This document shows positions 22,559 through 52,088 of a stretch of DNA of 55,875 nucleotides, in pieces. Each line of letters starts with the position of its first letter. Position 1 is the first letter of the stretch. The stretch covers positions 23,355-79,229 of the forward strand of contig CAZFGR010000006.1 in the NCBI GenBank assembly GCA_964518475.1. The letters run 5' to 3'. The notes beneath the pieces were generated by a model. The model made no database searches, had not been told where the DNA came from, and was given only the letters and a program-made list of their open reading frames with translations. The translations under genes and the position numbers were made by a program. Origin of the DNA: an uncultured Nitrososphaerota archaeon (lineage in GTDB: Archaea; Asgardarchaeota; Njordarchaeia; Njordarchaeales; Njordarchaeaceae).

Positions 22559-22564
22559 GAATCA

Positions 22565-25200: not shown

Positions 25201-25614
25201 GTGATTCTTTTGGAGATCTGTGAAATCTGTAACGAGAGAAAAGCGGAAACTATCTGTATTCGTTGCAGACGACCTATCTGCAGTAGCTGTGAGTCGCCAC
25301 AAGCTATGCTTTGCAAAGAGTGTTATGAATTTAAACGAGCTTTAGAGGAGCAAAGGGAATTAATGGTTAATTATATTGAGAAGATGACCAAGTTATCGTC
25401 TCTTAAATTGAAGAATTCTGAGTGTCTCCAGTGTAATATATTGCGTGAATTTTTATTATCTCTTTACAAGATGCTCAAAGAGCTCATAGATGAAGCTAAT
25501 AGAGAACTTTTCAACGAGGTTTTAAACAGAGGTAGAGAGATTGAAAAAAGGCTTAAAAAACTGCTTCTAACTGTGTTGACGTTGCAGGGACTGTCTATTA
25601 GTGAGAGAGATTAG
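25201..25614 (+). CDS. B-box-like zinc-finger protein with helical C-terminus
   Basis: CEIC..CIRC.R.IC..C...LC..C, plus a further CxxC inside a coiled-coil-like region. Confidence 0.7.
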   Translation: MILLEICEICNERKAETICIRCRRPICSSCESPQAMLCKECYEFKRALEEQRELMVNYIEKMTKLSSLKLKNSECLQCNILREFLLSLYKMLKELIDEANRELFNEVLNRGREIEKRLKKLLLTVLTLQGLSISERD

Positions 25615-26744: not shown

Positions 26745-27039
26745 CCTTTTCCCCTCCACCTAGGAATATTTTTGCAGGGATTGGTGATATCGGTGGTCGG
26801 GGCTTAGGGATTAGAAGCTCATCGGGTCTTTTCTTTAGCTTTCTCGCGAGCAGTCTTATCACAACTGGTAAGCATGTCCTCCCTTGACACGGACCCATTC
26901 CGATTCTCAATTTTCTTTTAAGCGTTTCTAAGTCAGTTATTCCTTCCTTGATGGCCTCCTCTATTTGCTCAAGCGTAACGTTTTCACACCTACATATTAT
27001 GACTGGGTGTTCCTTATTCTTTACTTCTTCCCTACCCAT
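26734..27039 (-). CDS. BFD-like [2Fe-2S] subunit of the proline dehydrogenase-like complex
   Basis: ICRCE...GMGPCQGRTC...RPP. Confidence 0.9.
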   Translation of the reverse strand: MGREEVKNKEHPVIICRCENVTLEQIEEAIKEGITDLETLKRKLRIGMGPCQGRTCLPVVIRLLARKLKKRPDELLIPKPRPPISPIPAKIFLGGGEKDEE

Positions 27040-27521
27040 ATCGCCCTCACCTCAAAAACTAATTCTTTGGGCACTTCTACGGTTACCACATAGGTCTTGT
27101 TACGCTCGAAAACTCGAACTACCTTTCCCGTACCTAAGGTTCTGCCATCTTTTCCCAACAGGGTGACTTCCTCGCCTTTCTTCGGTGCTGGTAAGAATTC
27201 GTGGGGCACTGTTACGTATCCCTTATCTTCCTGAGAGAGGTCAATGACAAAGATCGCTAATCCGGGACAAAGAGCTACACAAGTAGCGCATCCCACACAT
27301 TTATTCCAGTCCACTTTTGGTATGTCTGTTATAGAATTCATTGAAATAGCCCCGTAGGGACATGCGCTTACGCAAATATTACATGGTATTCTTTCGGGGC
27401 ACTCTATAAGCACTACTGGACCTTTTTTTAACCTTTCTTCTGGAGGCAATAGTCCGAGCTCTTTAATTACTTCAAGAGGAATTATACCATTTACTCTGTA
27501 GGGGGGAATTTCCTTATTCAT
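27021..27521 (-). CDS. 4Fe-4S ferredoxin subunit of the proline dehydrogenase-like complex
   Basis: ECP..IPCN.C...CP and CVGC..C...CPGLAIF; start placed at ATG 27521. Confidence 0.88.
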   Translation of the reverse strand: MNKEIPPYRVNGIIPLEVIKELGLLPPEERLKKGPVVLIECPERIPCNICVSACPYGAISMNSITDIPKVDWNKCVGCATCVALCPGLAIFVIDLSQEDKGYVTVPHEFLPAPKKGEEVTLLGKDGRTLGTGKVVRVFERNKTYVVTVEVPKELVFEVRAIWVGKK

Positions 27522-28974
27522 AACACTCACCCTCCGTAAGCAATACTTTCTTAATACCTTCTCTAACACGAGCTAAAAGAGGAGACTGACGATACTCATC
27601 AAGAATCTTAACGAGTTTCTCTCGCTCTTCCACAGCTTTGGGGATTTCTCCTTTCACTTTAATAACCGCTGATAATGCGGCTATTTGTCCCTCTAGCATA
27701 GCAACTGTTGCTTCTTCGATTCCCTTAACATCCCCAGCTATAAATACTCCAGGTACAGTGGTTTCCATATATTTGGTTCTGTACGCTACTAAACCACCCA
27801 GTTCTGATACCCAAGCCATCTTGGCGCCAGTCTGAGCTAGGAGACTAGCGTCTGGTGTGAGACCGACAGCGAGTAGGACTAAATCGCATTCAATATCTTT
27901 CTCTGTTCCAGGAATAGGCTGAAAGTTTTCATCTACTTGAACTATTGTTGCGCCCTCTACACGGTCTTTTCCCCAAACTCTCTTTATTGTATGTCTTGTG
28001 AAAATCGGTATCCCGTACCTCCTCACTTTTGCAGCATGAACTGCCCAACCTCCTATTTGGGGCATTATTTCAACGATTCCTTTTACGTTTACGCCAGCTT
28101 GGAGAAGCTGATAAGCTATTATTAACCCAACGTTCCCAGCACCTACAACGAGAGCATTATTCCCTGGTCTTACCCCGTATTCATTCATTAAGGTTTGTGC
28201 ACCACCAGCCCCCATCACTCCTGGCAAATCGTTTCCTGGGAATGCTAGGTAATTCTCGTGAGCACCAGTTGCGAAAATCATTGTTTTTGCTCTAACCCTA
28301 TAATGCTTGTTTTTCGATGCTAATCCTACCCATCCATCTCTGAATACTCCGTAAGCAATGGTCTCGGTAAGTACCTTAATATTCTCGTTATTCAATACCT
28401 TATCCGCTAACATCTCAGCAATCTGGAAACCTCTGAGACCACCAAAAAGCTCTTTTGATCCAAAAAATTTATGCGTTTGTTTAACTAGTTGACCTCCGAG
28501 TCTAAAATGATCTTCTACAAGAAGAACATTTAGGCCGTATTCTGCTGCTTTGAGAGCTGCAGAAAGACCAGCCGGTCCTCCCCCTATAATTAAGACATCC
28601 GTTTCTAACACTTCCTCCTCAGGAGACTCGCCTTCCTCTCGAACTTCTGGTATAGAGGGTAATCCTCTTTGACGAAATACTTGTAGCCCCTCTCTCACAG
28701 GTTCTCTGCACGTTCTTGTATTTGGAACCCCATTTACGACCATGAAACAACTACTGCACTTTCCTATCATACAAAAGGCTCCTCTAGGTCGTCCTTGTGG
28801 AGTCCAAGACAATATGTCTATTCCAGAAGCATAGAGAGCTATTGCTATCGACTCGTTCTCATAACCCTCTACTTCTTTTCCCTCGAAATAGAACTTGACT
28901 TTTTTACCGCGTTTAAATTCTAGAATTGGATGAGCCCATATTCTCCTATCAACTCCATTACTCGCACTTGGCAA
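27514..28974 (-). CDS. Proline dehydrogenase/sarcosine oxidase alpha-like subunit ([2Fe-2S] + FAD/NAD oxidoreductase)
   Basis: RPRG.FCMIGKCSSC...RTC, GGGPAG, GGQL.KQTHKFFG and GAGNVG. Confidence 0.9.
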   Translation of the reverse strand: MPSASNGVDRRIWAHPILEFKRGKKVKFYFEGKEVEGYENESIAIALYASGIDILSWTPQGRPRGAFCMIGKCSSCFMVVNGVPNTRTCREPVREGLQVFRQRGLPSIPEVREEGESPEEEVLETDVLIIGGGPAGLSAALKAAEYGLNVLLVEDHFRLGGQLVKQTHKFFGSKELFGGLRGFQIAEMLADKVLNNENIKVLTETIAYGVFRDGWVGLASKNKHYRVRAKTMIFATGAHENYLAFPGNDLPGVMGAGGAQTLMNEYGVRPGNNALVVGAGNVGLIIAYQLLQAGVNVKGIVEIMPQIGGWAVHAAKVRRYGIPIFTRHTIKRVWGKDRVEGATIVQVDENFQPIPGTEKDIECDLVLLAVGLTPDASLLAQTGAKMAWVSELGGLVAYRTKYMETTVPGVFIAGDVKGIEEATVAMLEGQIAALSAVIKVKGEIPKAVEEREKLVKILDEYRQSPLLARVREGIKKVLLTEGECYE

Positions 28975-33859: not shown

Positions 33860-34166
33860 AAATCTCTAAACTATTCGGAAAATTACTTTATATTAAGTAA
33901 GATTTAAGATTTATACATTGGAGAAAATCATGGATATGGAAAAATCGTAATTCTCGACATTCTTAAGGACGATCCCTATCCTCACACCAAGATACTTAAA
34001 GAAGCTATACAAAGAGCATTGAGTAGAGGAAGACGATAATATAAACCTCTAAAGCTTGTAGAATGCACATGCTTGAAGTGGTAGGAAATTATCAATATTC
34101 ATAAATAAATAATTAGAAATAAATGACTAGGAAAGTATTAGAAAAGATATGGAATAAAAGTGAAAA

Positions 34167-35315
34167 CTATTTGCTGATTTTTAATTTTTGATACTCATAG
34201 AACCATACAGCAATTATTCGATAGCCAAAGTGTGCAAATTTTGTAAATGGAGCCGTTACAATTAGATCGAAGACAAATATTAGATGTGTCGCGAACATCA
34301 CGTATGCTAGAAGAAACATGTTTGTGTACATGAATATGTCTATTAGGAAACCAGTCAATATTGCGAGGAATACAAGTATCAGGAAAGACCAATCGCTCTC
34401 ATGACTATATTGGGAGTAAACATCATTTTTGATTAATCTTTTATAGATAAAGTATATGGATCCATAAGCACCGATTAAGCCTCCAATGATACCGAATGCT
34501 CTAGCTAGAACTCCAAAAAATTCGATATCTATGGCTCTAAGAATTTCAAAGCTTTCTCTCAATCCAAGTAAATTGCTGTTTTTCAGATAATCTAGTGATG
34601 TAGCGAGGAACATTAGAACAAAGCCCCAGAATATTGCCAGATGTGCTATGTACCTATTCTGTCTCTCACACTTCGAGTAACGTCGTTCAGCAAGCACTTC
34701 TCCAAAAAGTATAATGAAAAAGCTCTTAACTAAATTTTTGACTTTTGTCCCAGTTGACAAGTTTCCTTCTAGAGCGCCATGTTTTATGTAATTGTACATT
34801 TTTATCCCTTGTAGTAAAGCGATAACAGCAATATAAACAGCTAAAACTAGGCCCGCTGTGTGGATAAACTCGTAGCTCAGTAATGAGAACGGATTAAACT
34901 TTGTGAGATCTAGCGGTTTCTTAAACAAGTATATTCCTAAAGCGGCGATAATAGATAGGATAATTAGGGACACTACTGACATTAACTTGGAATAGAATAT
35001 TCTCGCGATGCCGCCCAGAGAGTATTTTATGATAGCGTATCTCCTAGCAGCCATCATTAACGCTCCAGGATCAGCGTCGCGAGGGCAAGATTCGCTACAC
35101 TCTCCACAATAATAGCATAACCATAGTTGTGGACTCGATAATAACTTGTCTTCTAACCCGAGTATCGAGTACCTTATCATCATTCGTGGCAATTCAAAGT
35201 TATTCTCTGATAGTGGGCAAATAGCAGTACATTCCCCGCAACTATAACAAGCTGTGATATCAAACGCTCCAAGTTTCTTAATTTCTTTTATAAGATTCGG
35301 ATTTGTTCTCACCAT
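34167..35315 (-). CDS. QmoC-like protein: N-terminal 2x[4Fe-4S] HdrC-like domain plus heme b membrane anchor
   Basis: CYSCGECTAICP, WLCYYCGECSESCPR, about 6 TM helices with H..IFWGF, H...V and PFTKFAH..YR histidines. Confidence 0.85.
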   Translation of the reverse strand: MVRTNPNLIKEIKKLGAFDITACYSCGECTAICPLSENNFELPRMMIRYSILGLEDKLLSSPQLWLCYYCGECSESCPRDADPGALMMAARRYAIIKYSLGGIARIFYSKLMSVVSLIILSIIAALGIYLFKKPLDLTKFNPFSLLSYEFIHTAGLVLAVYIAVIALLQGIKMYNYIKHGALEGNLSTGTKVKNLVKSFFIILFGEVLAERRYSKCERQNRYIAHLAIFWGFVLMFLATSLDYLKNSNLLGLRESFEILRAIDIEFFGVLARAFGIIGGLIGAYGSIYFIYKRLIKNDVYSQYSHESDWSFLILVFLAILTGFLIDIFMYTNMFLLAYVMFATHLIFVFDLIVTAPFTKFAHFGYRIIAVWFYEYQKLKISK

Positions 35316-35322
35316 AGCTTAA

Positions 35323-35628
35323 TCACCTGCTTCCAACCCATTTATATTTCCAATATCCTTCATCCGTTTTCTCAACTGGTTCAATCTGCTTGTATCTTAG
35401 ATACGTCATTAGGTACCAAAATACCGTGTAGGTATCTATTCCAGTCTCTTTAGCTATTTCTGGTACTGTTTTAGGTCCGGTTTTCAATGCTTCTAGAATC
35501 TTTTTCTTTATCTCGTTCTGCTCTTTAAGCCGCTCCTGTAGTTCTTTGGGCGGAGCCTTAAAACCTATTTTTTCCCGAAGATAAAGGAAAGTATTTCTTT
35601 TTTCACGACTCCTCTCCTTTCCACTCAT
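35323..35628 (-). CDS. Small winged-HTH protein inside the Hdr/Qmo-like operon
   Basis: ILEALK.GPKTVPEIAKETG......W.L. Confidence 0.8.
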   Translation of the reverse strand: MSGKERSREKRNTFLYLREKIGFKAPPKELQERLKEQNEIKKKILEALKTGPKTVPEIAKETGIDTYTVFWYLMTYLRYKQIEPVEKTDEGYWKYKWVGSR

Positions 35629-35629
35629 T

Positions 35630-37588
35630 TCAAATCTCCTCCGCCATAGCTTTAATCATAGCTCTGATCTGCTCAGTAGATAGTGTCTTTAATTGAATAG
35701 CTTCTGTTGGGCATACAGCGACACATGATCCACAACCAATGCATAAAGCTTCATTTACCCAAGCTTTAATCCCTATTCCTTCATACTCTTTTTCTTGAAT
35801 CGCATTAACTGGACACTCCTTCATACATAGCTTAGATAGATTACATCTGCTTGGATCCACAAAAGCAACCAATGGCTCAAGCTCTATTGTCTCCCTCAAT
35901 ACAATGGATGCGGCCTTAGCAGCAGCCGCTGATGCAGATGCCAGCGTCTCCTGGATATTTCTTGGTGCTTGACAAGTACCAGCTATCAGAACCCCTGCAA
36001 TATTTGTTTCTACTGGTCGTAACTTGGGATGAACCTCCTGATAGAATCCATCTCTACCAATAGGTAGCTTCAGAATTTCTTCTAGCTTCTTATTTTCTCT
36101 CGCTACCATTCCAGTAACTAACACAACAAGATCGACAGGGATCTCTATCTCTTCTCTGTTCGTTAATAAATCTTTAACAGTGATGATGAGTTTATCTCCC
36201 TCTGAATGGACTCGTGGTGGATCATTTGGGTCATATCTAATAAAGACCGCTCCTTTCCTTCCCGCCTCTTCGTAATATGTTTCGTATTTACCATATGTTC
36301 GAATGTCTCTGTAGATGTTATAGATTGTCAAATCTTTGAATTTCTTAAACAACTCTGCGTTGAGATGCGTTGTAACTGAGCAACAGTACCTAGAGCAGTA
36401 CTCATTAACCTTCTCTGGACCAGTTGGTAGTTGCCTGCTCCCAACACAGTAGATAAAAGCTATCGATTTTACTTCTTTTCCATTAAACATTATTTTTTCA
36501 TCACTACTAATATCTAAGATTCTTTCAAACTGCGGCAATGTTATAACGTTTTGGAATTTCTTGTAACCAAATTCTCCTTCTTTGGGTTCGTACGTGTCAA
36601 AGCCAGTCGCAACGATTACTGCACCAACGTTAAGCGTGATTGTTTGTGGTTGTTGATTAAAGTCCACTGCATCGCCTAAAATCTTTACGCATTCACCACA
36701 TTTATTACAATGTTCCATATCTATTACGGGTAGATCTGGGTAGGCCCCCTCGTAAGGAATATAAATCGCTTTTCTCTTCGTAAGCCCGTAATCAAACTCG
36801 TTAGGAACCTCTATTGGGCACTTCTCAATAGCCTCTGCTATTTTAGGATGCTTCTTTACGATATATCTTGGATTAACTTTAATTTTAACAGTGAAATTAC
36901 CCAAAAAACCACTAAAGCTCTCAACCTCAGCATTCGTATAGACAACGATGTTATCCCTTTTCTTAAGCTCCTCTATTAATCTTCGCACAATATCTTTCCC
37001 GCTCTCTCCGCTCGGAAAAGCTTTCCATATCTGAGCTACTCTTCCACCCAAGAATGGTGACTTTTCAACCAAGAATACATTTACACCCATCCTTGATAGA
37101 TCAAGGGCCGCCCTAATTCCTGCAATACCCCCACCTATGATTAATACACTCGGCGTTGTCTTAACTTTAATCTTCTCTAATGGTTTTGCACGCCGCACAT
37201 ATTCGATACCCGCTTTTACATGCCTAATAGCTTTCTTAGTCGCTTCCTCTGGGTTATCCGAATGCGCCCACGATACATCCTCTCTAATGTTAACGTGATA
37301 GAAAAGATATGGGTTCAAACCAGCCCTGGCTACACAGTTTCTAAATGTCATTTCATGCAACTTCGGAGAACACGAAGCAACAACGACGCCGTCGAGATTA
37401 TACTTCTTTATGTCCTCCTCGATCATTTTTTGTCCAGCATCCGAGCACATGAACATGAAATGTTTTGCCACGACTACTCCTGGGTAATTCTTGATTACCT
37501 CAACTACCTTCTCAACATCAACAACATCCGATATATTCCCGCCGCAATGGCATACATACACTCCGATCCGCTTAGCCATATACATCAC
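35630..37588 (-). CDS. HdrA-like flavoprotein (QmoB-like, lacks the FPTxDCxxC cysteines)
   Basis: N-terminal CHCG domain, GGGIAG, AFPSGES in place of TFPTxDC, CVGSR, CSRYCC and C-terminal ferredoxin. Confidence 0.9.
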   Translation of the reverse strand: MMYMAKRIGVYVCHCGGNISDVVDVEKVVEVIKNYPGVVVAKHFMFMCSDAGQKMIEEDIKKYNLDGVVVASCSPKLHEMTFRNCVARAGLNPYLFYHVNIREDVSWAHSDNPEEATKKAIRHVKAGIEYVRRAKPLEKIKVKTTPSVLIIGGGIAGIRAALDLSRMGVNVFLVEKSPFLGGRVAQIWKAFPSGESGKDIVRRLIEELKKRDNIVVYTNAEVESFSGFLGNFTVKIKVNPRYIVKKHPKIAEAIEKCPIEVPNEFDYGLTKRKAIYIPYEGAYPDLPVIDMEHCNKCGECVKILGDAVDFNQQPQTITLNVGAVIVATGFDTYEPKEGEFGYKKFQNVITLPQFERILDISSDEKIMFNGKEVKSIAFIYCVGSRQLPTGPEKVNEYCSRYCCSVTTHLNAELFKKFKDLTIYNIYRDIRTYGKYETYYEEAGRKGAVFIRYDPNDPPRVHSEGDKLIITVKDLLTNREEIEIPVDLVVLVTGMVARENKKLEEILKLPIGRDGFYQEVHPKLRPVETNIAGVLIAGTCQAPRNIQETLASASAAAAKAASIVLRETIELEPLVAFVDPSRCNLSKLCMKECPVNAIQEKEYEGIGIKAWVNEALCIGCGSCVAVCPTEAIQLKTLSTEQIRAMIKAMAEEI

Positions 37589-38913
37589 CTCTTTGCACGA
37601 CGTTTATGCTCATTCAGATAAGCCATACATTGTGCTGCAGCTGCATCAGCTTCAACTATAGAATCAGGGATATCTTTAGGCCCCAAGACACATCCAGCTG
37701 CGAATACTCCTGGCACCGATGTAGCTGTGGGATTATTATTTGGATCCACTTGCTTTATCCATCCTACCTCATCAAGTTCTATATTCACGTTCTTAAATAC
37801 TTTTACAATATCAGAATTCGGTAACGCTCCTACAGCTAAGACAACAAGATCAAATGTATCCTCCTTTAGTTTACCTCCATCATCCATATCCTCATATTTC
37901 ACTACTACGTTACCTTTTTCATCCTCATCAACAACTACAACCCGACCCTTAATAAACATCGTACCCATCGCTTGAGTTTGATTAAAGAATTCCTCAAAGC
38001 CCTTACCAAAAGCTCTAATATCGATATAGAATATCGATACATCCGCTAATGGTAGAGCACCCATAATCAATTGTGCTTGCTTTATAGAGTACATACAGCA
38101 TATCTGTGAGCAATAGGGATTACCCACCTTGTGATCACGAGAACCAACGCAGAGAATATAAGCAATTCTCATAGGTTCTTTGCCGTCCGAAGGTCTTAAG
38201 ACACTATTATATGGTCTTGTTGGAGCAAGTAAGCGGTCCATTTGCATGGCGGTTATAACATTCTTGCATCTACCGTAACCGAATTCTGGTCTAAGCGTGG
38301 GCGAAAATAGTTTAAAGCCTGTAGCAATTATTATTGCTCCTACTTTTACCTCTAATATTTCTGGTTCTTGGGTAAAATCAATAGCACCAGCTGGGCACGC
38401 TCTTTCACAACTTCCACACAATATACAATTATCGAGATCTATAATCGCTTTCTTTGGTACAGCAATATCGAATGGTATATAAGCTGCTTTACGTCCTCTC
38501 ATATCGAATTGAAATTCATCTGAAACTATCACTGGACATACATTCTCACAAACACCGCAACCAGTACAAGCATCCAAATCAACATACCTAGGTTTCTTTA
38601 ATATCTTGACTGAGAAATCTGCTTCTCCGTTCTTAACAACTTCCTGTACCTCCGAATATGTTAATAAAGTAATGTTCGGATGATGCGCCGCAGCTGCCAT
38701 TTTTGGTGTAGAAATACAGCTTGCACAATCTAATGTTGGGAAAGTCTTACTTAATAGCGCCATCTTTCCTCCAATACTCCCCTCTTTCTCCACCAATAGA
38801 ACCTTATAACCAGCATCTCCCAGTGTTAGAGAGGCTTCAATGCCGGCTATGCCCCCACCTATTACTAATACATCATACTCATTCGCTCGCTTCATTTTTG
38901 CATACCTCATCAT
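37585..38913 (-). CDS. Short HdrA-like flavoprotein (QmoA-like core with inserted ferredoxin)
   Basis: Begins at GGGIAG; has TFPTLDCASC, a 2x[4Fe-4S] insert and CSQICCMY; no N-terminal domain or C-terminal ferredoxin. Confidence 0.9.
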   Translation of the reverse strand: MMRYAKMKRANEYDVLVIGGGIAGIEASLTLGDAGYKVLLVEKEGSIGGKMALLSKTFPTLDCASCISTPKMAAAAHHPNITLLTYSEVQEVVKNGEADFSVKILKKPRYVDLDACTGCGVCENVCPVIVSDEFQFDMRGRKAAYIPFDIAVPKKAIIDLDNCILCGSCERACPAGAIDFTQEPEILEVKVGAIIIATGFKLFSPTLRPEFGYGRCKNVITAMQMDRLLAPTRPYNSVLRPSDGKEPMRIAYILCVGSRDHKVGNPYCSQICCMYSIKQAQLIMGALPLADVSIFYIDIRAFGKGFEEFFNQTQAMGTMFIKGRVVVVDEDEKGNVVVKYEDMDDGGKLKEDTFDLVVLAVGALPNSDIVKVFKNVNIELDEVGWIKQVDPNNNPTATSVPGVFAAGCVLGPKDIPDSIVEADAAAAQCMAYLNEHKRRAKR

Positions 38914-39326
38914 TCTGTCTTCTTCTTAACCGGACCTAGTTTCTTCACTTTTTCATAGAGATCATGAATATGCTTCAAGAACGGCTCAACACATACGGAA
39001 CATATCGCGGACATTTTTAGTCTTTCTGGCTCAATACCGTGCTTCTTAAGCAGTTCTACTGCTTCTGCAATCCTTTTAGCGGTTCTATCGGAACAATCCT
39101 TTAGGAATGGACAATCGGTACCATCAGCCGCTACAAATACTCCGTCAAAGCCGCATTGGAATGCATAAAGTATTATGTCTGGTCTTATCATGCTAGAACA
39201 TGGTACTCTTATAATCGATGTAGTAGCAGGGTAATGCCTATGAAGTAGCCCCGTCAAATCAATTGCTAGATCCGATATAAAATCGGTTGAAAAGATAAGA
39301 ATCTTTGGTTTAAACTCTTCTGACAT
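38910..39326 (-). CDS. Divergent MvhD/FlpD-like Fe-S protein
   Basis: F.PKI..F, Y......IR.PCS, AF..G.DGV and GI.PERL align with MvhD at 22142; Cys pattern altered. Confidence 0.85.
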   Translation of the reverse strand: MSEEFKPKILIFSTDFISDLAIDLTGLLHRHYPATTSIIRVPCSSMIRPDIILYAFQCGFDGVFVAADGTDCPFLKDCSDRTAKRIAEAVELLKKHGIEPERLKMSAICSVCVEPFLKHIHDLYEKVKKLGPVKKKTE

Positions 39327-39389
39327 TTTAAAACACCAAAATGGTTCTTTAAGCGGTAGAAAAAAGAGAAAAAGTAGCTAGTAAAGGGC

Positions 39390-39647
39390 TCACTTCTTCC
39401 TTCTAACAAATATTCTCCAATAACCCGGCTCCTCAATGACTCCTAAAAATTCGTGCCCTACTTTCTTGGCCCACAGTGGTAGATCCCTAGCAGTACCTGG
39501 ATCGGAAGAAAGAACCTCTAAAATTCCTCCAATAGGTACCTCTGTAATGGCTCTTTTAGCTGCTAGAAGAGGGCCTGGACAAGATACGCCTCTTGCATCA
39601 ACAGTTTTGTCGGGTTTTATTTTCCTTAGATCAATTTCCTCAGGCAT
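39390..39647 (-). CDS. tusA: TusA/SirA family sulfur carrier
   Basis: DARG.SCPGP, EVLS.DP....D.P.W. Confidence 0.92.
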   Translation of the reverse strand: MPEEIDLRKIKPDKTVDARGVSCPGPLLAAKRAITEVPIGGILEVLSSDPGTARDLPLWAKKVGHEFLGVIEEPGYWRIFVRRKK

Positions 39648-39657
39648 CTTTATCCCC

Positions 39658-40068
39658 CTATATGAAAAGCGCTACATCAGCCTGCCTTGCGGCATCAACC
39701 ATCTCAGTAGCTCCACACATATCATCTACAAGTATCAAGTCATCTAATGTTGCATTCCAAGCCTTAGCAGCAGCTCCACACGCATGAATCCTTACAGTAC
39801 CCATCTCTTTGAGCTCTTTTAACATCTCGTACCATGGTTTCAGACCAGCTCTCTTTAAACCTTCTTCAACTTGGGAAGCAAGCTCTTTGTGCTCTATTAA
39901 CTCTTTATTTTTCTCTACGACATCCTTTCTGAAAGCGTAGACTCCCCAAAGCATTAAGTATATGTCTACTTCCATATCTAGAGCTACAGCACCACTTACA
40001 AGAACAGCCATTCCAAGCAATCTGTCAGGCGTTCCATTATTGACAATTATGACCATTCTTCCAGGCAT
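39658..40068 (-). CDS. DsrE/DrsE-family sulfurtransferase-like protein
   Basis: A.ALD.EV.IY...WGV, IHAC and ..GA..M....A...LFI; start placed at ATG 40068 after GGTG. Confidence 0.85.
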   Translation of the reverse strand: MPGRMVIIVNNGTPDRLLGMAVLVSGAVALDMEVDIYLMLWGVYAFRKDVVEKNKELIEHKELASQVEEGLKRAGLKPWYEMLKELKEMGTVRIHACGAAAKAWNATLDDLILVDDMCGATEMVDAARQADVALFI

Positions 40069-40601
40069 ACATAACACCTAGGAAACTATTATATCTTAAC
40101 ACAAGTAGAGATCCTTTTTTAGCATTTAATATAAGGTCTATAGGGAAAATGATTGTAAAAATAATAAGTTTATTACGTCTATTGATTCTATATATTCCAA
40201 TCAGTTATAAGTATAGAAGTAGTATAGTATATATTATACCTTCATATATAGTATATAAAGAAGCGTTGTTCTATAACTTTGTCTACGAGATACTAACTGT
40301 ATTTCATCATTCCCCCTCGAAACTAGGATTTATATTCACGGTTCTAAGGTAAGAATTCGCTTCACGATAACAGATAACTTGGCTGATATTATCGATATTA
40401 TAGTGGCCATCTTGTTGATCTTCTTCCGTACTAAATAGTACTTGGAGAAGATATTTGAAACTATTTCTGTGTTATATTAACGAAAACAAGTTAAATTAAC
40501 TCCTTCTACGGTCTAACAATTTATTTTAAATATTAGCCATGCCTAATTAATACTTATTTTTGTAGAAATATATAGGTTCCTCCAAAACTCAGGGACCTTG
40601 A

Positions 40602-42049: not shown

Positions 42050-43558
42050 TTAAGATACTGCAGCCCAGTAGATTGAGGGATTTAGAAGGCTCTCTGTTGC
42101 GTTTTGGATATAGCTTAGCACGATGCCTGGATAGATGCTTACAATTATTATTGCAACGAATATTAGTGTCAACGCAGCTATCATTTCATTCAATTCTTTG
42201 TAATTACTCTCTTTTGTTACTTTCTTTTCTTTTGGTTGCTTCATTATTATGTATTTTATGAGTCTTCCATAGTACCCTATTGAAATTATACTATTCACGA
42301 GTACTAATGCGGCGATTATCAGACCTCGATATCCATCAATGCTTAATGCCGCCCATACGATGAGAAGCTTTGAGAAGAACGTCGAGAAGGGTGGGAGACC
42401 CATTAAACCTATTGCTCCTCCTCCGAAAATAGTTCCAGCTATGGGCATTGATCTACCTATACCGCTTAGATCGTCGAGTTTTCGGCTTCCCGCTTCGTGA
42501 ACAAAAATACCTGCCCCCATGAACATCATTGCTTTAAATAATGCATGATTTATCATGTGGAAAATTGCTGCAGCTATGCCCAACGCTGTTCCTGTTGCTA
42601 CACCGACGAGTATTACTCCTATATTATAGATGCTTGAGTACGCTAGTATCCTCTTTACATCGTCTTGAGCGAGAGCTATTATATTGGGTATAGTAATTGT
42701 CAAGGCACCAATTATCAAGAGGAGATCATATAGTTCAAATCTTATACCAGAGGAGAGTACTAGAAGCCTTATTATAGCGTAAACACCCGATTTAATAACC
42801 ACACCAGATAGCATAGCACTTATGCCACTAGGCGCTGCTGGGTGGGCATCAATTAGCCACGAGTGCATGGGGAATATAGCGGCTTTAAACGAGAATCCAC
42901 AGACTAGCAGAGTAATCACGAAAAACTTTGTCAAGTTGGAGCCCATTTCATATAATTGCTTTGTTGCTAATGCAATGTTTAGAGTTCCAGCTACACCATA
43001 TAGAAGAGCAAAACCTAGGAGAACCAGTGTACTCCCAGTAGCGTCCATTATCAAGTATTTAAAAGCTGCTTCAACCGCTTCCTCATTCTTAAAATAAGCT
43101 ACTAATGAGATAGCGCTGACGCTCAAAGATTCGTAAAAGACAAAGAATGTTAAGAAGTCTCCAGCATAAACTATACCTATGAGACTGAGTAGCATGACTA
43201 GTAAGAGAATATAATAGGCATTGAGTGCATGTCTTCCCTCCATGTATTTTAGGGAATATATAGCGACTACGAATGTTACAAATGCAAAAAGTACGGCCAT
43301 GATAGCGCTGAAGCTGTCGATTATTAGACAAGATGTACTCGGGGACTGTGCTGTAAACCATACAGTGATTGGGTAATGCAGCGTCATTTGGAGAACTTGT
43401 ACAGTTTCTATTAGTGTTAATAGTGATACTACAGCTCCAATGCTTCCAAGTAAATAATTATTTTTCCTTACTGACTCTTTCAGTCCCACTAACACTATTA
43501 ATACTATACCTAAAATGATAGTTAGGAAAATGTTTAATGGAGGCGATAAAAGGTTCAT
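42050..43558 (-). CDS. Antiporter-like subunit (MrpD/NuoM-N type) of the group 4 hydrogenase
   Basis: FVF.E, EAAFKY, KAA.FP.H.WL.DAHP.AP, KR.LAYSS and NHALFK. Confidence 0.9.
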   Translation of the reverse strand: MNLLSPPLNIFLTIILGIVLIVLVGLKESVRKNNYLLGSIGAVVSLLTLIETVQVLQMTLHYPITVWFTAQSPSTSCLIIDSFSAIMAVLFAFVTFVVAIYSLKYMEGRHALNAYYILLLVMLLSLIGIVYAGDFLTFFVFYESLSVSAISLVAYFKNEEAVEAAFKYLIMDATGSTLVLLGFALLYGVAGTLNIALATKQLYEMGSNLTKFFVITLLVCGFSFKAAIFPMHSWLIDAHPAAPSGISAMLSGVVIKSGVYAIIRLLVLSSGIRFELYDLLLIIGALTITIPNIIALAQDDVKRILAYSSIYNIGVILVGVATGTALGIAAAIFHMINHALFKAMMFMGAGIFVHEAGSRKLDDLSGIGRSMPIAGTIFGGGAIGLMGLPPFSTFFSKLLIVWAALSIDGYRGLIIAALVLVNSIISIGYYGRLIKYIIMKQPKEKKVTKESNYKELNEMIAALTLIFVAIIIVSIYPGIVLSYIQNATESLLNPSIYWAAVS

Positions 43559-43574
43559 AGTCTGTTCACCCCAG

Positions 43575-45557
43575 TTAGATCAGCACTAATATGAGAAGGA
43601 TTACTATTCCAGCAACAGCATAAGCAATATTCACATTCGAAATACCAGTCTGAATCCTTCGTAATACTTGAGAAACGCCTTTAACTCCATCTACAAATAT
43701 GACATAGTAAGCCTTGTTGATATACCATCGATTATACAAGAACTTCCATATAGCTCTTAGAACAATACTCTTCTCCATAAGCTTCTTCACATCGATTGTC
43801 TGTTTAACAAACGCATAATAGCTTGGTACTAAGCCGACTACGATTAGGGCTCCCGATATGAAAAATGTTCTTGAAGAAAGAGTCTCTAGGAAGTATGTGA
43901 GTATATTAGCGGGCTCAAACGCATGAGATAATGTACCGTGCTCGATGAATTCGAAGATCGCAGGTCCTAGGATACTTAAAATCACTGTTGACGCTGCTAG
44001 GACTATTAGAGGAAGCACCATTGATATGCTCTTCTCTCTTATGCCATGCTCCTCAATAATATGCTTTACATGCTCGCTCTCTTTTCCAAAGAATACGTAC
44101 CCAATCATTCGAATTGTGTAGAAAGCTGTGAGTGCTACTGTAACGACCGCCAATAGGAAAAGTATCATGTTGCCAGACTCGTAACTGGCTGCGATTATAC
44201 CTTCTTTGCTGAAGGCTCCAGAGAATGGTGGGATACCCATTAATGAAAGAGCCCCCATCAGCATTGTCCAGAAGGTTATTGGCATGTATTTAGCCAGTCC
44301 TCCCATCTCATCTAGGTATTTTGTGTGAACTGTGTGAAGAATCGCTCCTGCTGCTAGGAATAATAATGCTTTGAATACAGCGTGAGATGCTAGGTGGTAG
44401 AGTCCGTAGAGATATGCATGCTCATGATGAATTATTAAGCCAGCTACTCCCAATGCTAGGAACATGTAGCCCAGTTGGCTTATTGTTGAGTACGCAAGGA
44501 CTTTCTTTAGCTCTCTCGCAACCATTCCTTGAGAAGCTGCTAGGAAAGCGGTGAAAGCACCAATATAAGCCACTATTAGGAAGAACATTTTTGCTTGCGG
44601 ATAATAATTTGTTGCTTCTAACATTATCGGGAAGAACCTAGCAACAAAGTATACACCAGCTTTCACCATCGTAGCCGCGTGGATAAGTGCACTAACCGTT
44701 GTTGGACCAGCCATCGCTTCCGGCAACCATTCGTGATAGGGAAATTGAGCACTCTTACCGAAAGGTCCAGAGAGGATAAACAAGGTAAATACTGGTAGAA
44801 GTCCTAGCCTCGCTAATTCCCCTATCCATTTCAGTTCTTGATCAGCCATTAATCTGGTGAATGAGAATATCGGCGCTCCATAAACTCTCCAAGTGACCCA
44901 GCCAATCATGAGGATTGCTACTAAGAAGAATGTGTCCGCGAACCCCGTCGTTACTAAGGCTTTAAAGCCGCAATGTGCATTATATTCTCCCTCGGTGGCA
45001 AATCGGGGATCTGGACTTGGAGCTGTAGATTTGTACCAAAAACTGATTAGTCCCCAGCTGCATAATCCTACAAGTTCCCACGATATAAACATCTGCAGTA
45101 GATTATTCGATAGTACTAGGAGGATCATGGATCCAACGAATAGATTCATCCAGAACCAGTACCTTCCAATGTCCACTTCTTCACCCATATAATAAATGCT
45201 GAAAACAAAGATCCATAGCGCGATAAAGGACACTATATTAGCCATGAAGACACTTAATGGATCTATTAAGAAGCCCAGATTAATACTGCTCCTGACTATT
45301 TTTGCGAGATCTATCCATACAAATTCGTGATCAAAAGGTATTTCCCCTAAGACTCTACCTGGCGAATATGTAGCGTAGCCAGCGAGAATATCTGGAATCA
45401 TAGATACCGCACATATGAAGGATGTTGTTACGCTAGCTATAGATAACGCAAATACAGCTGTTCTAGAGATTTTCGCGATGAATGGGGATAGTGCCGCAAT
45501 AATTATTGGAACTAACCATATCAAAATATCCGCATATGGGATCATATCACTCACCAC
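43575..45557 (-). CDS. Antiporter-like subunit (NuoL type) of the group 4 hydrogenase
   Basis: WELVGLCS, GKSAQFP.H.WLP.AMAGPT.VSALIHAATMV.AG and KKVLAYSTISQLG. Confidence 0.92.
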   Translation of the reverse strand: MVSDMIPYADILIWLVPIIIAALSPFIAKISRTAVFALSIASVTTSFICAVSMIPDILAGYATYSPGRVLGEIPFDHEFVWIDLAKIVRSSINLGFLIDPLSVFMANIVSFIALWIFVFSIYYMGEEVDIGRYWFWMNLFVGSMILLVLSNNLLQMFISWELVGLCSWGLISFWYKSTAPSPDPRFATEGEYNAHCGFKALVTTGFADTFFLVAILMIGWVTWRVYGAPIFSFTRLMADQELKWIGELARLGLLPVFTLFILSGPFGKSAQFPYHEWLPEAMAGPTTVSALIHAATMVKAGVYFVARFFPIMLEATNYYPQAKMFFLIVAYIGAFTAFLAASQGMVARELKKVLAYSTISQLGYMFLALGVAGLIIHHEHAYLYGLYHLASHAVFKALLFLAAGAILHTVHTKYLDEMGGLAKYMPITFWTMLMGALSLMGIPPFSGAFSKEGIIAASYESGNMILFLLAVVTVALTAFYTIRMIGYVFFGKESEHVKHIIEEHGIREKSISMVLPLIVLAASTVILSILGPAIFEFIEHGTLSHAFEPANILTYFLETLSSRTFFISGALIVVGLVPSYYAFVKQTIDVKKLMEKSIVLRAIWKFLYNRWYINKAYYVIFVDGVKGVSQVLRRIQTGISNVNIAYAVAGIVILLILVLI

Positions 45558-45871
45558 TTAAGCTTACTCAGTTTTCTTACATCTCTGGTCTTGAAGACTC
45601 GATATACCAGAATTGTAAGAGAGACAGCGAGTGCAGCGACTATTGATCCAACGGCCATCGAGATAATGACTATGCTACGGACTAGAGGATCAATTACACC
45701 AGGGGAGAACCAGTAACTAACGACAACAAATGTCATGTTAGCTGCTGCAAGCATCAGCTCTATCGCTAAGATCATTCGAAGCACGTTTCTTTTCGCTATT
45801 AAGGTGTATATCCCAATAGCATAGATTGCAAAACAAAGGGCAAAGTATACTTGAATCGGTAAAACAGTCAT
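45551..45871 (-). CDS. NuoK/MrpC-like membrane subunit
   Basis: G.Y.L..KRN..R...AIELM and C-terminal L..LKW; start placed at ATG 45871 after GGAGGTGA. Confidence 0.85.
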   Translation of the reverse strand: MTVLPIQVYFALCFAIYAIGIYTLIAKRNVLRMILAIELMLAAANMTFVVVSYWFSPGVIDPLVRSIVIISMAVGSIVAALAVSLTILVYRVFKTRDVRKLSKLKW

Positions 45872-45872
45872 G

Positions 45873-46142
45873 TCATTCACCTCCAGCTTCTTTACCAAAG
45901 AATATTGCCATACCAGCAGCCATCGCCACGACTAATATAGCCTGGATTATAATATCGAAGCCCCTTAAGAACCACAAGAACTCTGGCAACTTTTGTGAGA
46001 GAGCTTGTAAACTTGTTATAATCCTGGTGTTCCAGTCTGGTATTGCAGACGGATTCGCTATAGGTGTGTATGGCATGTAATAATATACGCTCAAGAAGAC
46101 AATAATTGCAATTACGCCGGCCAGGAAATATCCTATTCTCAT
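45873..46142 (-). CDS. Small membrane subunit (NuoJ C-terminal/MrpB-like)
   Basis: Two TM helices with an LW..RGFD motif; located in the operon. Confidence 0.7.
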   Translation of the reverse strand: MRIGYFLAGVIAIIVFLSVYYYMPYTPIANPSAIPDWNTRIITSLQALSQKLPEFLWFLRGFDIIIQAILVVAMAAGMAIFFGKEAGGE

Positions 46143-46420
46143 TTCTCTTCCTCCTCCACCTCTATCACTTCTGCCTTAGTTATGCTCAGATACAGGAGTA
46201 AGAGACTTGAAACAGCACCAGCGTATATTGTAGCTTGAAAAGCGGCCAGGTATGGATAACCGAGATATAAAAAGAGGATAGCCACAAGCATACTGAATAG
46301 CATGAAACCTCCCACTGCTCTCGAAACGGGCGAAGCTTCAGCCACGTAAATAGCGGCCACAAGTATCGCAATTATTATAAAGACCTCTAAAATCATTTCT
46401 GGGCTAATCATTCTTATCAC
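46139..46420 (-). CDS. Small membrane subunit (NuoJ N-terminal-like)
   Basis: Three TM helices with A.FQ..IYAGAV. Confidence 0.78.
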   Translation of the reverse strand: MIRMISPEMILEVFIIIAILVAAIYVAEASPVSRAVGGFMLFSMLVAILFLYLGYPYLAAFQATIYAGAVSSLLLLYLSITKAEVIEVEEEEK

Positions 46421-46421
46421 C

Positions 46422-47393
46422 TCACAATATGTAGGCCCTTACAATAACTGCTAAGAGAGCCTGCAACACGGCTAGAGGCGTGATTGCTTTCCAGAATCCT
46501 CTAAGAACATGATCGATCCTATACCTAGCCATAATAGCCTCAACTAATGAAACGATGAAAACCAATATGATCAGCTTAACCAAGAACCACACGAAATACA
46601 TTATTGGACCAAAAACATCTACGAAGGGCCCATAGCCTCCTCCTAGGTATAGAGCTACGCACAGACTTATTGCTAGTAAGAGTTCTAAATCCATGCTTAA
46701 TCTGTAGAAAGCAAGTCTTCGTCCACTAAGCTCTACCTGCCAACCACCAGCTATCTCCGTCTCGGCTTCTGCAATATCGAATGGTACCCTCTCTGTTTTG
46801 GCCATCGTGCTTATTAGCATTATGACGAATCCTAATGGAGCGTAGATGAAGATTGGTCCATATACTGTCTGGAATCGTGCAATATCCGCAATTATTGTAG
46901 AGCCAGCTATTAAGGCGGCTGACGCTATAGAGAGCACGTATGATATTTCAAATGATATTGTTAGCTCAGCGTACCTGGCTGAGCCTACTATGGCATAGGG
47001 GCTAGGAGTAACATATCCCGTCAACACGATTAGTGTGGCGAATATTGCTGAGAGACCAATGATGAATATGAGGTCTCCTGGATAGCTTAAGATTGGTTCT
47101 GGCGAGAAGATTGGTATGAACATTAGAGAGAAGGTAACTAAAGATGCTTGAAGAATGGGGATTATTGTTAATAATAGTTTGTCCGCGCCAGTGGGGGTTA
47201 TTTCTTCCTTACTCATAAGTTTTAAAAAGTCCGCTAATGGTTGCAGAAAACCTTTTGGTCCCGTAACCAATGGCCCTATCCTTGACTGCATCCTTGCAAC
47301 AAATTTTCTCTCAAGCCACTCTACAATAAACGCAAATATCATGAAGATAGGAATTAGTACTACTATCACGTATTCCATAGTCCTCCCTCTCAT
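46422..47393 (-). CDS. NuoH/HycD-like membrane subunit
   Basis: ERK..ARMQSRIGP, QPLADFLKL..KE and R.PFD.AEAE.E. Confidence 0.93.
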   Translation of the reverse strand: MRGRTMEYVIVVLIPIFMIFAFIVEWLERKFVARMQSRIGPLVTGPKGFLQPLADFLKLMSKEEITPTGADKLLLTIIPILQASLVTFSLMFIPIFSPEPILSYPGDLIFIIGLSAIFATLIVLTGYVTPSPYAIVGSARYAELTISFEISYVLSIASAALIAGSTIIADIARFQTVYGPIFIYAPLGFVIMLISTMAKTERVPFDIAEAETEIAGGWQVELSGRRLAFYRLSMDLELLLAISLCVALYLGGGYGPFVDVFGPIMYFVWFLVKLIILVFIVSLVEAIMARYRIDHVLRGFWKAITPLAVLQALLAVIVRAYIL

Positions 47394-47704
47394 TCTTTAG
47401 GTGCTAGTAAAAGGGCTAGCAGAATTATCAGAATGTAGATTAATGGAAGAACTATCAACACTCCAGCTCCAAATGCTAGAAGTACTAGCAGACCAGCTGT
47501 TTCAAAAGCCGTGAACAGACTAACGTAATAAATCCACTTTATCCTGTAAGGTACTCTCATCGGATGATATTTCTCTCCACTTACGAATGGGAGAAGAGCC
47601 TCCCTCTTCTTTCCCTTCCTCTCGCCCTTTCCTAGACTATACAAAATGGCGAAGAATACCACAATTATAATAAACGCTATAGCGAGATCCCAGAACGTAA
47701 CCAT
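47390..47704 (-). CDS. NuoA-like membrane subunit
   Basis: TM, PF.SGE loop, Y...F..FE, then 2 TM helices. Confidence 0.7.
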   Translation of the reverse strand: MVTFWDLAIAFIIIVVFFAILYSLGKGERKGKKREALLPFVSGEKYHPMRVPYRIKWIYYVSLFTAFETAGLLVLLAFGAGVLIVLPLIYILIILLALLLAPKE

Positions 47705-47753
47705 TTAAAATCACCCTTTCAATAATTCTCTATCGCCATGGAAAAATTAGTTA

Positions 47754-48098
47754 TCAGATTCTAAGTTCGTCTTTCTTGATAATTGCAGTGTGGTAATTCT
47801 TGGTAAAACTGATTGCCTTAGTGGGACAAATCTCGATACAAGAGCCACAGAAAACGCATTTTGATAGATCGAATGAGGGTCTCTTTTTTGTTTTTGTTCT
47901 CTCATCAGGAACCATTGTTATTACTTGTGTAGGACATACACGTGCACAAGAGCCGCATCCAATGCATTTCGAAATATCAAACATTAATACCCCTCTATAG
48001 CCGTCGGGAACAGGTGTCTCTTTCATAGGATACGGTAGAGTAGCTGGCTTCCGAACAAAGCTTTTAAGGGCTTCTTTAAATAGTACTCCCCAAGACAT
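47754..48098 (-). CDS. NuoI/HycF-like 2x[4Fe-4S] subunit
   Basis: T..YP.....P..YRG, CIGCGSC...CP and CVFCGSC...CP. Confidence 0.92.
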   Translation of the reverse strand: MSWGVLFKEALKSFVRKPATLPYPMKETPVPDGYRGVLMFDISKCIGCGSCARVCPTQVITMVPDERTKTKKRPSFDLSKCVFCGSCIEICPTKAISFTKNYHTAIIKKDELRI

Positions 48099-49304: not shown

Positions 49305-49314
49305 AGTTCTTCAC

Positions 49315-49752
49315 CTACTCAAACTTAGCATCCTTCCTAAGAGGGTGGAAATCTTCCGGCACGTCTTCCGGGAGAAGAAGCCTCTTGAGTCTTGGATGAC
49401 CATCGAACTTAACGCCCAGTAAATCGTAAACCTCTCTCTCATAAACTAGAGCACTTGGATAAAGATCTATGACTGAGGGAGCTATCGGATTATCCCTATC
49501 TACAAATGTTCTAACATTCACATTTACAGCACGTCCATCAGTAAACTTCACTAGATGATAAACGAGCATGATCTTCTCTCCAGTATCATATCCAGTAATC
49601 GTTGATAAATGATCAAATCCGTTCTTGGCTAGATAACCTAGAACCTCCTTCAGTGATTCGATACTGATCTCTACCCACGCCTCACCAAATTTATCCACAT
49701 AACAATTCGCCTTATCGCCAAAAACTTTCGAGATCTCCTCGCAGATACTCAT
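49315..49752 (-). CDS. NuoC-like subunit
   Basis: YERE.YDL.G..F.GHP....L and HPLRKD. Confidence 0.92.
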   Translation of the reverse strand: MSICEEISKVFGDKANCYVDKFGEAWVEISIESLKEVLGYLAKNGFDHLSTITGYDTGEKIMLVYHLVKFTDGRAVNVNVRTFVDRDNPIAPSVIDLYPSALVYEREVYDLLGVKFDGHPRLKRLLLPEDVPEDFHPLRKDAKFE

Positions 49753-50189: not shown

Positions 50190-50207
50190 ACAAGCACCCA
50201 TAGAATA

Positions 50208-52081: not shown

Positions 52082-52088
52082 TTATTTT

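Follow-up and report, generated by a model that had tools for sequence, protein, structure and literature searches.

Which redox partner would a Qmo-shaped complex serve when its operon encodes neither the adenosine 5′-phosphosulfate (APS) reductase genes aprAB nor hdrB? This question is raised by a locus in a 55,875-nucleotide stretch of DNA (the window, positions 23355-79229 of contig CAZFGR010000006.1, assembly GCA_964518475.1) from the metagenome-assembled genome (MAG) of an uncultured Asgard archaeon of the Njordarchaeaceae (2.33 Mb, 91% complete, 5.8% contamination). Seven open reading frames (ORFs) on the minus strand span positions 34167-40077 of the window in the order dsrE, tusA, mvhD′, short hdrA, long hdrA, a winged helix-turn-helix (wHTH) gene and a qmoC-like gene. 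An earlier note on this DNA had described seven co-oriented, tightly spaced or overlapping genes of these families without aprAB or hdrB. Our ORF map and profile searches matched each ORF to the family given there, and neither aprAB nor hdrB was found within the operon, the sole HdrB of the genome being encoded 13 kb away in the same window as part of a canonical Mvh-Hdr cluster. We propose that the operon encodes a membrane-anchored complex of the type II Qmo shape whose redox partner is cysteine-bound sulfur on TusA and DsrE rather than APS reductase, a proposal that is drawn from gene content and sequence and to which we give an even chance of being correct.

Conservation of the seven genes and their sulfur carriers

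Relatives of the QmoC-like protein were searched for in one genome per species, which gave at least 587, and gene order was surveyed in 49 loci with at least 5.8 kb of upstream sequence. Both HdrAs are encoded in 42 of these loci, which come from about 15 phyla, and here the wHTH gene is present in all 42, MvhD′ and TusA in 41 each and a DsrE-family gene in at least 35, located either in front as in the window or, as a DrsE_2-type gene, past qmoC. MvhA and HdrB are encoded in none of the 42. The bacterial hosts are Aminicenantes, Acidobacteria, Chloroflexota, Planctomycetota, Clostridia, Actinomycetota and Desulfobacterota, and the archaeal hosts are Thermoproteota (cultured Vulcanisaeta included), Bathyarchaeia, Nitrososphaeria, Thermoplasmata, Archaeoglobales and the Heimdall and Njord lineages. 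The earlier note would have abandoned its interpretation had dsrE and tusA not been conserved beside the hdrA pair in other genomes, and the counts just given show that they are. TusA and DsrE accompany the HdrA pair, MvhD′ and QmoC in both Bacteria and Archaea, and the seven genes make up a single conserved unit. Families outside this core are common to at most eight of 62 loci and are mostly regulators (ArsR, a sigma-54 activator, LysR and Rex); in three Aminicenantes loci (L008:3604-4233 and two others) the cluster is preceded by a gene for a redox-sensing regulator of the Rex type, and in four loci, in some Aminicenantes, a FadL/TodX-type outer-membrane channel is encoded downstream (e.g. 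L008:11550-12836).

Among Asgard archaea, a QmoC-like relative is present in 17 of 201 sampled genomes and in nine of 59 genera. Three of the seven genomes of the window's own genus carry the gene, the other two copies being 89% identical to that of the window, and the next best Asgard copy is at 45% identity. The closest public relative of the locus, also at 89% identity, is from a ‘Candidatus Njordarchaeota’ MAG. In the HdrA tree discussed below, the window copies lie with those of Nitrososphaerales, Thermoproteota and Vulcanisaeta, and one Heimdall copy lies with bacterial sequences, so that both the patchy Asgard spread and the tree placement fit horizontal spread. Patchiness of this kind, together with nearest relatives beyond the genus that are 45-50% identical and from other phyla, might also be expected of a recently transferred copy that is non-functional or decaying. 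However, all seven frames are intact, every cofactor ligand is retained, the GC content of the operon is the same as that of the flanking DNA and the two congeneric genomes hold the operon at 89% identity, which makes decay extremely improbable.

The TusA of the operon (39390-39647, minus strand; 85 aa; Pfam TusA, 81 bits) contains Cys23 in a DARGxxCPGP motif and is 47-79% identical to cluster-linked TusA from 23 other genomes of various phyla, with the CPGP motif invariant across all 24 sequences. It is conserved more strongly than the enzymes of the complex. The DsrE-family protein (39658-40077, minus strand; 139 aa as called) matches the Pfam models DsrE at 38 bits and DrsE_2 at 34 bits and reaches 34 bits against the NCBIfam DsrE2 model, where the cut-off is 210 bits, and so the match is to the superfamily level. 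Its Cys100, in the motif HACG, is invariant among 15 homologs of the upstream type. For dsrE, the annotated GTG start probably lies 9 or 21 nt upstream of the true one, which would be the ATG of 40068 or 40056. No other TusA and no other DsrE-family gene was found in the genome. In Escherichia coli, TusA has biosynthetic thiolation roles. By this precedent, the carriers could serve thiolated tRNA or cofactors in a housekeeping function for which HdrA and QmoC supply the reducing power needed to mobilize sulfur, and that the operon has the genome's only TusA, with no rhodanese or YeeE found, is in keeping with this. Nevertheless, a membrane complex of 2,000 residues with two flavins and about nine Fe-S clusters would be disproportionate to such a task, and the patchy presence of the operon, both within the genus and across Asgard genomes, is unlike that of housekeeping genes. 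We regard a biosynthetic role as rather remote.

As to APS reductase, searches of the 91%-complete genome found no aprA, dsrA, mcrA or DsrC/TusE. Sat is present and adjoins not Apr or Dsr genes but APS kinase and a sugar dehydrogenase: at C9:56831-57943, consecutive genes for Sat, an unassigned 460-aa protein, APS kinase and a UDP-GlcNAc 3-dehydrogenase-like protein resemble a 3′-phosphoadenosine 5′-phosphosulfate (PAPS)/sulfation cassette in an Asgard archaeon. In the 44 genomes with the same build as the window, AprA occurs in five and DsrB in eight. The Vulcanisaeta and Thermoproteaceae genomes that have AprA and DsrB contain the type II gene as the sole QmoC-type gene found, and type II has been proposed in print as the Qmo of those organisms (PMC10504309). 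The complex might then be a general Qmo-type electron hub whose acceptor depends on the host, for example APS reductase in Vulcanisaeta, Thermoproteaceae and Ammonifex, with TusA and DsrE as accessory proteins in, say, maturation or regulation. This fits poorly with the lack of AprA in 39 of the 44 genomes with the build and with the retention of TusA in 41 of 42 loci at a level of conservation above that of the enzymes; in addition, the Vulcanisaeta cluster does not adjoin aprAB or dsrAB, and a distinct type I QmoC (399 bits against the classical QmoC model) exists alongside one of the present type (189 bits) in one Archaeoglobales genome. Such a hub is in our judgment improbable. The most economical reading of the operon is that of a sulfur-carrier-linked membrane redox complex, because TusA and DsrE are part of the conserved unit, AprA is absent both here and from most of the genomes with the build, and the HdrAs lie outside the clade of QmoA and QmoB.

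The HdrA pair, the QmoC-like anchor and MvhD′

The two HdrA paralogues differ in their domains in a complementary manner. The short, QmoA-like HdrA (37585-38913, minus strand; 442 aa; positions 138-562 of the HdrA2 model) has a flavin adenine dinucleotide (FAD) domain, the TLDCxxC motif (Cys63 and Cys66, at the position of ‘Cys197’), an inserted ferredoxin domain with two [4Fe-4S] clusters and the 4-Cys cluster, and has neither the N-terminal domain nor a ferredoxin domain at its C terminus. In the long, QmoB-like HdrA (35630-37588, minus strand; 652 aa; model positions 1-643), the N-terminal 4-Cys domain is present, TLDCxxC is missing from the FAD domain, the inserted ferredoxin domain is degenerate and the 4-Cys cluster is again found; the protein ends after its C-terminal ferredoxin domain with no fused MvhD domain. 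HdrA2 is the best NCBIfam match of both. Across 25 such pairs, TLDCxxC, the 4-Cys cluster and all eight cysteines of its inserted ferredoxin domain are always present in the short form, and the long form always has the four N-terminal cysteines, never has TLDCxxC and is degenerate in the inserted domain. The short HdrA of many bacteria is larger, at about 900 aa, and contains a GltD/NfnB-like NAD(P)H module inserted at the position of the ferredoxin domain, which is not the case in the archaeal form here. In the solved MvhADG-HdrABC complex, the N-terminal cluster of one HdrA is completed by Cys197 of its partner HdrA, and tandem HdrAs of anaerobic methanotrophic archaea (ANME) with the same complementarity of Cys197 and N-terminal domain have been interpreted as forming heterodimers (PMC9012536). 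Because the losses in the two proteins are complementary, the short and long HdrA are expected to pair as an obligate heterodimer in which electrons follow one asymmetric path, as far as can be judged from their cofactor motifs.

The relationships of the pair were analyzed in an HdrA-family tree of 81 sequences with SH-like approximate likelihood ratio test (SH-aLRT) support, in which classical Qmo was represented by ten qmoABC loci, nine from Desulfobacterota and one from Archaeoglobales. QmoA and QmoB of type I form a separate clade (support 100), and the short HdrAs (100) and long HdrAs (99) are each monophyletic and placed amid canonical HdrA. The earlier note had named aprAB elsewhere in the genome, with subunits nesting inside bona fide Qmo clades, as the finding that would overturn its proposal. 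What we find is the opposite on both counts, with aprA not found and the HdrAs outside the QmoA/QmoB clade. Copies from Vulcanisaeta and Thermoproteaceae share subclades with the short (98) and long (96) HdrA of the window, the Vulcanisaeta reference copies being those of Vulcanisaeta sp. JCM genomes and not of V. moutnovskia. Because its proteins group with these copies, the core of the window operon is a member of type II Qmo, the subunits being HdrA-like and the QmoC low-scoring as well.

Each type II HdrA is sister to the matching subunit of a second build, QmoC-HdrA(430 aa)-HdrA(650 aa)-MvhD-MvhG-MvhA, that we found in seven loci (L014, L018, L026, L035, L063, L082 and L083) from Bathyarchaeia, Nitrososphaeria and some bacteria. 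Here the same membrane and HdrA core is wired to a [NiFe] hydrogenase, MvhD has the canonical cysteines, and TusA, DsrE and wHTH are not in the cluster, the only trace being one weak TusA-like match about 6 kb upstream in L014.

The QmoC-like anchor (34167-35315, minus strand; 382 aa) consists of an HdrC-like domain for two [4Fe-4S] clusters fused to about six hydrophobic membrane helices. Over positions 4-359 it scores 210.5 bits against NF038018, which is below the equivalog cut-off of 300 bits, and scores with this model are bimodal, with 189-210 bits for the present type and 373-525 bits for classical QmoC. The eight cluster cysteines are present in at least 78 of 80 type II sequences, His225, His344 and His362 in all 80 and His152 and His305 in 64, and the eight cysteines and His225/344/362 are all retained in six type I QmoC sequences. 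The anchor thus has the two [4Fe-4S] motifs and the helices with histidine ligands that are typical of the heme b anchors of the QmoC/HdrE/NarI type.

It is MvhD′ (38910-39326, minus strand; 138 aa; MvhD/FlpD match of 97 bits) that gives the operon its distinctive character. The AlphaFold2 (AF2) model, with a mean predicted local distance difference test (pLDDT) score of 93.6, superposes on MvhD (5odc_D) with a template modeling (TM) score of 0.87 and a root mean square deviation of 1.3 Å. The canonical MvhD ligands of the [2Fe-2S] cluster are cysteines at about positions 15, 43, 68 and 72, and MvhD′ retains just Cys43 and Cys72; it has lost the canonical CxxC of positions 15/18 and gained Cys78 and a CxxC of Cys109 and Cys112, which in the model sits between the strand of residues 103-107 and the helix of residues 113-130. 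This CxxC is present in 45 of 46 cluster-linked MvhD′ homologs. The remaining cysteines differ by lineage, and in three MvhD′ from Anaerolineae the CxxC is the sole cysteine pair. It is missing from the canonical MvhD of the window, from the MvhD domain of ten type I QmoB proteins and from the MvhD that the hydrogenase-linked sister build encodes. When 1.84 billion representative proteins were searched with a profile, all 25 of the best site-covering matches carry the CxxC, and eight more matches with it are lower-ranked, among matches of the canonical four-Cys pattern. The CxxC is thus a family-specific mark of MvhD′. It tracks with the sulfur carriers, as the canonical ligands track with hydrogenase, an association that is suggestive rather than statistical proof.

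Several observations touch on the physical partners of MvhD′. In Vulcanisaeta sp. JCM 14467 (L040:6102-7766), residues 48-137 of MvhD′ are in frame with the short HdrA in an ORF of 554 aa, which may reflect fusion of the two genes or a frameshift in the draft assembly and hints at physical association of the two proteins. A prediction of the complex of MvhD′ and TusA, with both given as alignments, reached a score of 0.30 against a mark of 0.32 and is used here as evidence neither way. A possible fusion of TusA and MvhD′ in one related locus (L057) was rejected, as the 215-aa ORF has an unassigned N-terminal extension and no TusA domain.

The wHTH protein (35323-35628, minus strand; 101 aa) contains no cysteine or histidine and has weak HTH_5/FaeA matches only. 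Its gene is between long hdrA and qmoC in all 42 loci, the AF2 model has a pLDDT of 87.6, and the nearest ESM Atlas clusters are ArsR-like. A more specific identity, such as DsrD-like, was rejected after the fold search and ESM Atlas gave only generic winged helices of the ArsR/SmtB, Zalpha, TFE and MarR kinds. The protein may be a subunit of the complex or a regulator encoded within the operon, and the fixed gene position suits both.

Proposed electron flow and its direction

Based on homology to the solved MvhADG-HdrABC complex, we now put forward a hypothetical scheme with three ports. At the first, MvhD′ would dock on the C-terminal ferredoxin domain of the long HdrA. At the second, the 4-Cys clusters would lead to the HdrC-like domain of QmoC, which would stand in place of HdrBC, and from there to the membrane. 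At the third, the inserted ferredoxin domain of the short HdrA would face ferredoxin, and it is there that many bacteria have the built-in NAD(P)H module. TusA and DsrE would deliver sulfane sulfur to the CxxC of MvhD′ or remove it, by thiol/persulfide exchange at that site, and the CxxC would hand two electrons to the HdrA flavin or take two electrons from it. In a reductive mode, reduced ferredoxin, with or without the membrane carrier, would reduce the carrier-bound sulfane sulfur to H2S, and this reduction would act as an electron sink. The chemistry at persulfides, ferredoxin as a partner and the direction in which electrons flow are all inferred in this scheme. The S0/HS– couple has a midpoint potential of about –270 mV, midway between menaquinone and ferredoxin, and the reaction could therefore run either way. 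We favor reduction over oxidation by a modest degree in this fermentative, hydrogen-cycling archaeon, because the window has a group 4 hydrogenase, Mvh-Hdr, electron transfer flavoprotein (ETF)/acyl-CoA dehydrogenase and amino-acid dehydrogenases, because a Rex-type regulator precedes the cluster in three Aminicenantes loci, and because no respiratory acceptor system was found in the genome among those searched for.

In the oxidative direction, sulfide or carrier sulfur would be oxidized at MvhD′, the flavin would bifurcate electrons to the membrane carrier of QmoC and to ferredoxin, and TusA and DsrE would export the sulfane sulfur, as in an analogue of sHdr without HdrB or in a manner like that of sulfide:quinone oxidoreductase (SQR). 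The intermediate potential of the sulfur couple agrees with this direction as well. Further, oxidative sHdr systems come with DsrE/TusA pairs, the sister build places hydrogenase, a donor, at the MvhD port, MvhD is by homology the entry port of a mid-potential donor in Mvh-Hdr (PMC9012536), and a cluster of Hdr, TusA and sulfurtransferase genes in Cloacimonadota has been interpreted as oxidative (PMC8542988). Arguing in the other direction, no quinol acceptor and no quinone or heme pathway were found in the genome, nor were Dsr, Apr or other genes for handling sulfite or for downstream oxidation; Sat is in a sulfation context, and the hosts belong mostly to fermentative lineages. Oxidation is therefore a possible, although in our view unlikely, direction for the complex.

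The evidence for a sulfur-carrier-linked complex has to be set against a number of points that weigh against it. As a source of sulfur for TusA, no rhodanese, YeeE/YedE or polysulfide/thiosulfate reductase was found in the genome. There is no catalytic HdrB-type site in the operon, and the role assigned to the CxxC rests on its conservation and position, and the association of CxxC with TusA goes back to essentially one evolutionary split and hence is not statistically independent. The wHTH protein, if a mere regulator, would be no part of the complex. The type II core of Vulcanisaeta and Ammonifex has been proposed to serve APS reductase (PMC10504309). The cofactor supply of the anchor is likewise adverse. 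Neither ALAD nor MqnA/D was found in the 91%-complete genome and no MenB match was over the cut-off, although uptake is possible, and across the 44 genomes with the sulfur-carrier build, where the classical Men pathway was not searched for, ALAD is missing from 27 and MqnA/D from 33.

Without ALAD there is no known route to heme in this genome, and the supply of heme b and quinone to the anchor in this cell is unsupported, as is the quinone pool as a partner. The earlier note had envisaged a membrane-linked complex exchanging electrons among the quinone pool, ferredoxin and protein-bound sulfur. From this, a membrane redox complex linked to sulfur carriers stands, by virtue of synteny, the absence of AprA and the tree, whereas the quinone pool does not, given that ALAD, MqnA/D and MenB were not found. 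The pattern extends beyond this cell, with ALAD missing in 30 and MqnA/D in 38 of 50 genomes that bear a QmoC-like gene, every Aminicenantes genome included. His225/344/362 are invariant even in hosts without ALAD or MqnA/D, and hosts that lack heme or quinone genes and have intact QmoC-type anchors present a separate puzzle as to how the anchor works.

Three candidates that might have altered this picture were considered and rejected. The lone UbiA-type, MenA-like prenyltransferase scores 94.9 bits, below the cut-off of 102 bits, and its neighbors (an amidohydrolase, a deaminase and a DHH phosphoesterase) give no quinone context. The complex at 42050-50201, a conceivable Nuo-like sign of quinones, has a large subunit with the NiFe motifs CGIC and DPCMSC, which makes it a group 4 membrane hydrogenase with no bearing on quinones. 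The single molybdopterin enzyme of the genome is an orphan and FdhA-like, and not a candidate for Psr or Phs. As a side observation, genes for a FixC/ETF-QO-like flavoprotein, EtfA, EtfB and an acyl-CoA dehydrogenase are consecutive at 50798-55232 (minus strand), so that a quinone-binding domain of the ETF-QO type is encoded in a genome in which no quinone pathway was detected.

In essence, the scheme makes a membrane-anchored complex of this kind a candidate for the terminal reduction or oxidation of zero-valent sulfur bound to carriers. A bolder hypothesis is that HdrA-based flavin complexes have in the CxxC of MvhD′ a terminal site of a new kind, namely a thiol/persulfide exchange center that replaces HdrB and wires S0/sulfide into bifurcation or confurcation with ferredoxin and a membrane partner. 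We consider it tentative and, on balance, doubtful. If true, it would amount to a widespread and overlooked sulfur-dependent energy route in fermentative anaerobes, Asgard archaea included. Most of the loci examined have the sulfur-carrier build, and the hosts include the abundant sediment lineages Aminicenantes, Bathyarchaeia, Chloroflexota and Planctomycetota. Should the sulfur-linked scheme itself be right, cryptic cycling of sulfur by ‘fermenters’ would be under-counted, and Asgard archaea would gain a sulfur-linked electron sink beside a metabolism otherwise regarded as hydrogen-based. For the role of type II Qmo in organisms without Dsr or Apr, which Neukirchen et al. 2023 left open (PMC10504309), the almost constant presence of TusA, a DsrE-family protein and an MvhD′ with CxxC provides a testable hypothesis.

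Genomic setting and comparison with known systems

The seven genes are closely packed, with overlaps of 4 nt between mvhD′ and short hdrA and between short and long hdrA and with other gaps of 1, 7 and 10 nt, except after tusA. Here there is a spacer of 63 nt (39327-39389, minus strand) that is T-rich on direct reading of the sequence, with runs of five to six T, and that may be a partial or leaky archaeal terminator, in which case the carrier transcript would exceed the enzyme transcript. Upstream of dsrE, the region 40078-40601 is AT-rich and non-coding and also precedes a divergent B12-radical-SAM gene; no family match was obtained for a 67-aa ORF within it, and a TATA-like sequence, TTATATTAAA, about 45-55 nt ahead of the dsrE start is a putative promoter element. 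Downstream, the region 34100-34166 (minus strand) has oligo-T runs directly past the qmoC stop, likely an archaeal terminator, and the neighboring gene is convergent. A gene for an archaeal CCA-adding enzyme adjoins the locus. No RNA datasets were listed with the operon or with short hdrA alone, and the DNA matches are sediment and hydrothermal-vent metagenomes, the best of which may come from the source sample itself.

Other redox modules are encoded in the same window, all on the minus strand. At 15556-24511, the genes of canonical HdrA-MvhD-MvhG-MvhA-maturation protease-HdrC-HdrB run on into those of a 235-aa Fe-S protein and a TfrA/SdhA-like flavoprotein. The genome lacks mcrA, and by its gene content this cluster may represent an Hdr that is driven by hydrogen and coupled to a module resembling fumarate reductase. 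The group 4 complex at 42050-50201, with its large subunit at 48099-49304, has Mrp-type antiporter subunits and is of the H2-evolving kind. At 25611-28974, SoxB-like, small GlpA-C-terminal-like, ferredoxin-like and SoxA/TrxR-like genes are consecutive, a set that resembles the heteromeric proline/sarcosine dehydrogenase complexes of Thermococcales.

In the earlier note the module was termed uncharacterized, which is correct for the build and not for its core. With reference to Chernyh et al. 2020, Neukirchen et al. 2023 (PMC10504309) and the DiSCo paper (PMC8477390) recognize a ‘type II’ QmoABC with A and B subunits close to HdrA that is found also in organisms without Dsr or Apr, where its role awaits experiments. 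The QmoA-, QmoB- and QmoC-like proteins of ‘Ca. Vulcanisaeta moutnovskia’ and Ammonifex degensii are likewise nearer to HdrA than to classical Qmo. In the open papers type II Qmo has three subunits and is presented without mention of TusA, DsrE, an MvhD′ with CxxC or wHTH, whereas all four are present here and APS reductase is not. We found no description of this build in the open literature, the scope of our search, with subscription journals outside it. As far as the open literature goes, the sulfur-carrier/MvhD′/wHTH build is undescribed, and the type II core had already been named. The nearest published case that we found is that of Cloacimonadota, in which an Hdr cluster with sulfurtransferase, TusA and a transporter was interpreted as serving sulfur oxidation (PMC8542988).

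The type I QmoABC found in sulfate reducers and green sulfur bacteria has the same plan as the window complex, with two HdrA-derived flavoproteins and an HdrC/heme b anchor that shares the QmoC cysteines and histidines. It differs in that its MvhD domain is fused to QmoB and has the canonical four cysteines with no CxxC, where a separate gene is found here, in that it is encoded with aprAB and with no wHTH, TusA or DsrE nearby, and in that it forms its own clade. MvhADG-HdrABC of methanogens (PDB 5odc) has the same HdrA domains, cluster ligands and MvhD fold, but the operon here encodes no hydrogenase or HdrB, its HdrAs would form a heterodimer rather than a homodimer, HdrC is fused to a membrane domain and MvhD′ has a CxxC at 109/112 in place of that at 15/18. 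The tandem HdrA pairs of ANME have other partners and gene contexts, with no QmoC, TusA or DsrE (PMC9012536). Finally, the sHdr system (DsrE3, TusA and LbpA) likewise has a DsrE-family protein and TusA beside Hdr-type subunits, but it contains HdrB1/B2, HdrC1/C2, lipoate-binding proteins and a single HdrA with no membrane anchor, whereas the operon described here has no HdrB and combines the two carriers with paired HdrAs, MvhD′ and a QmoC-like anchor.

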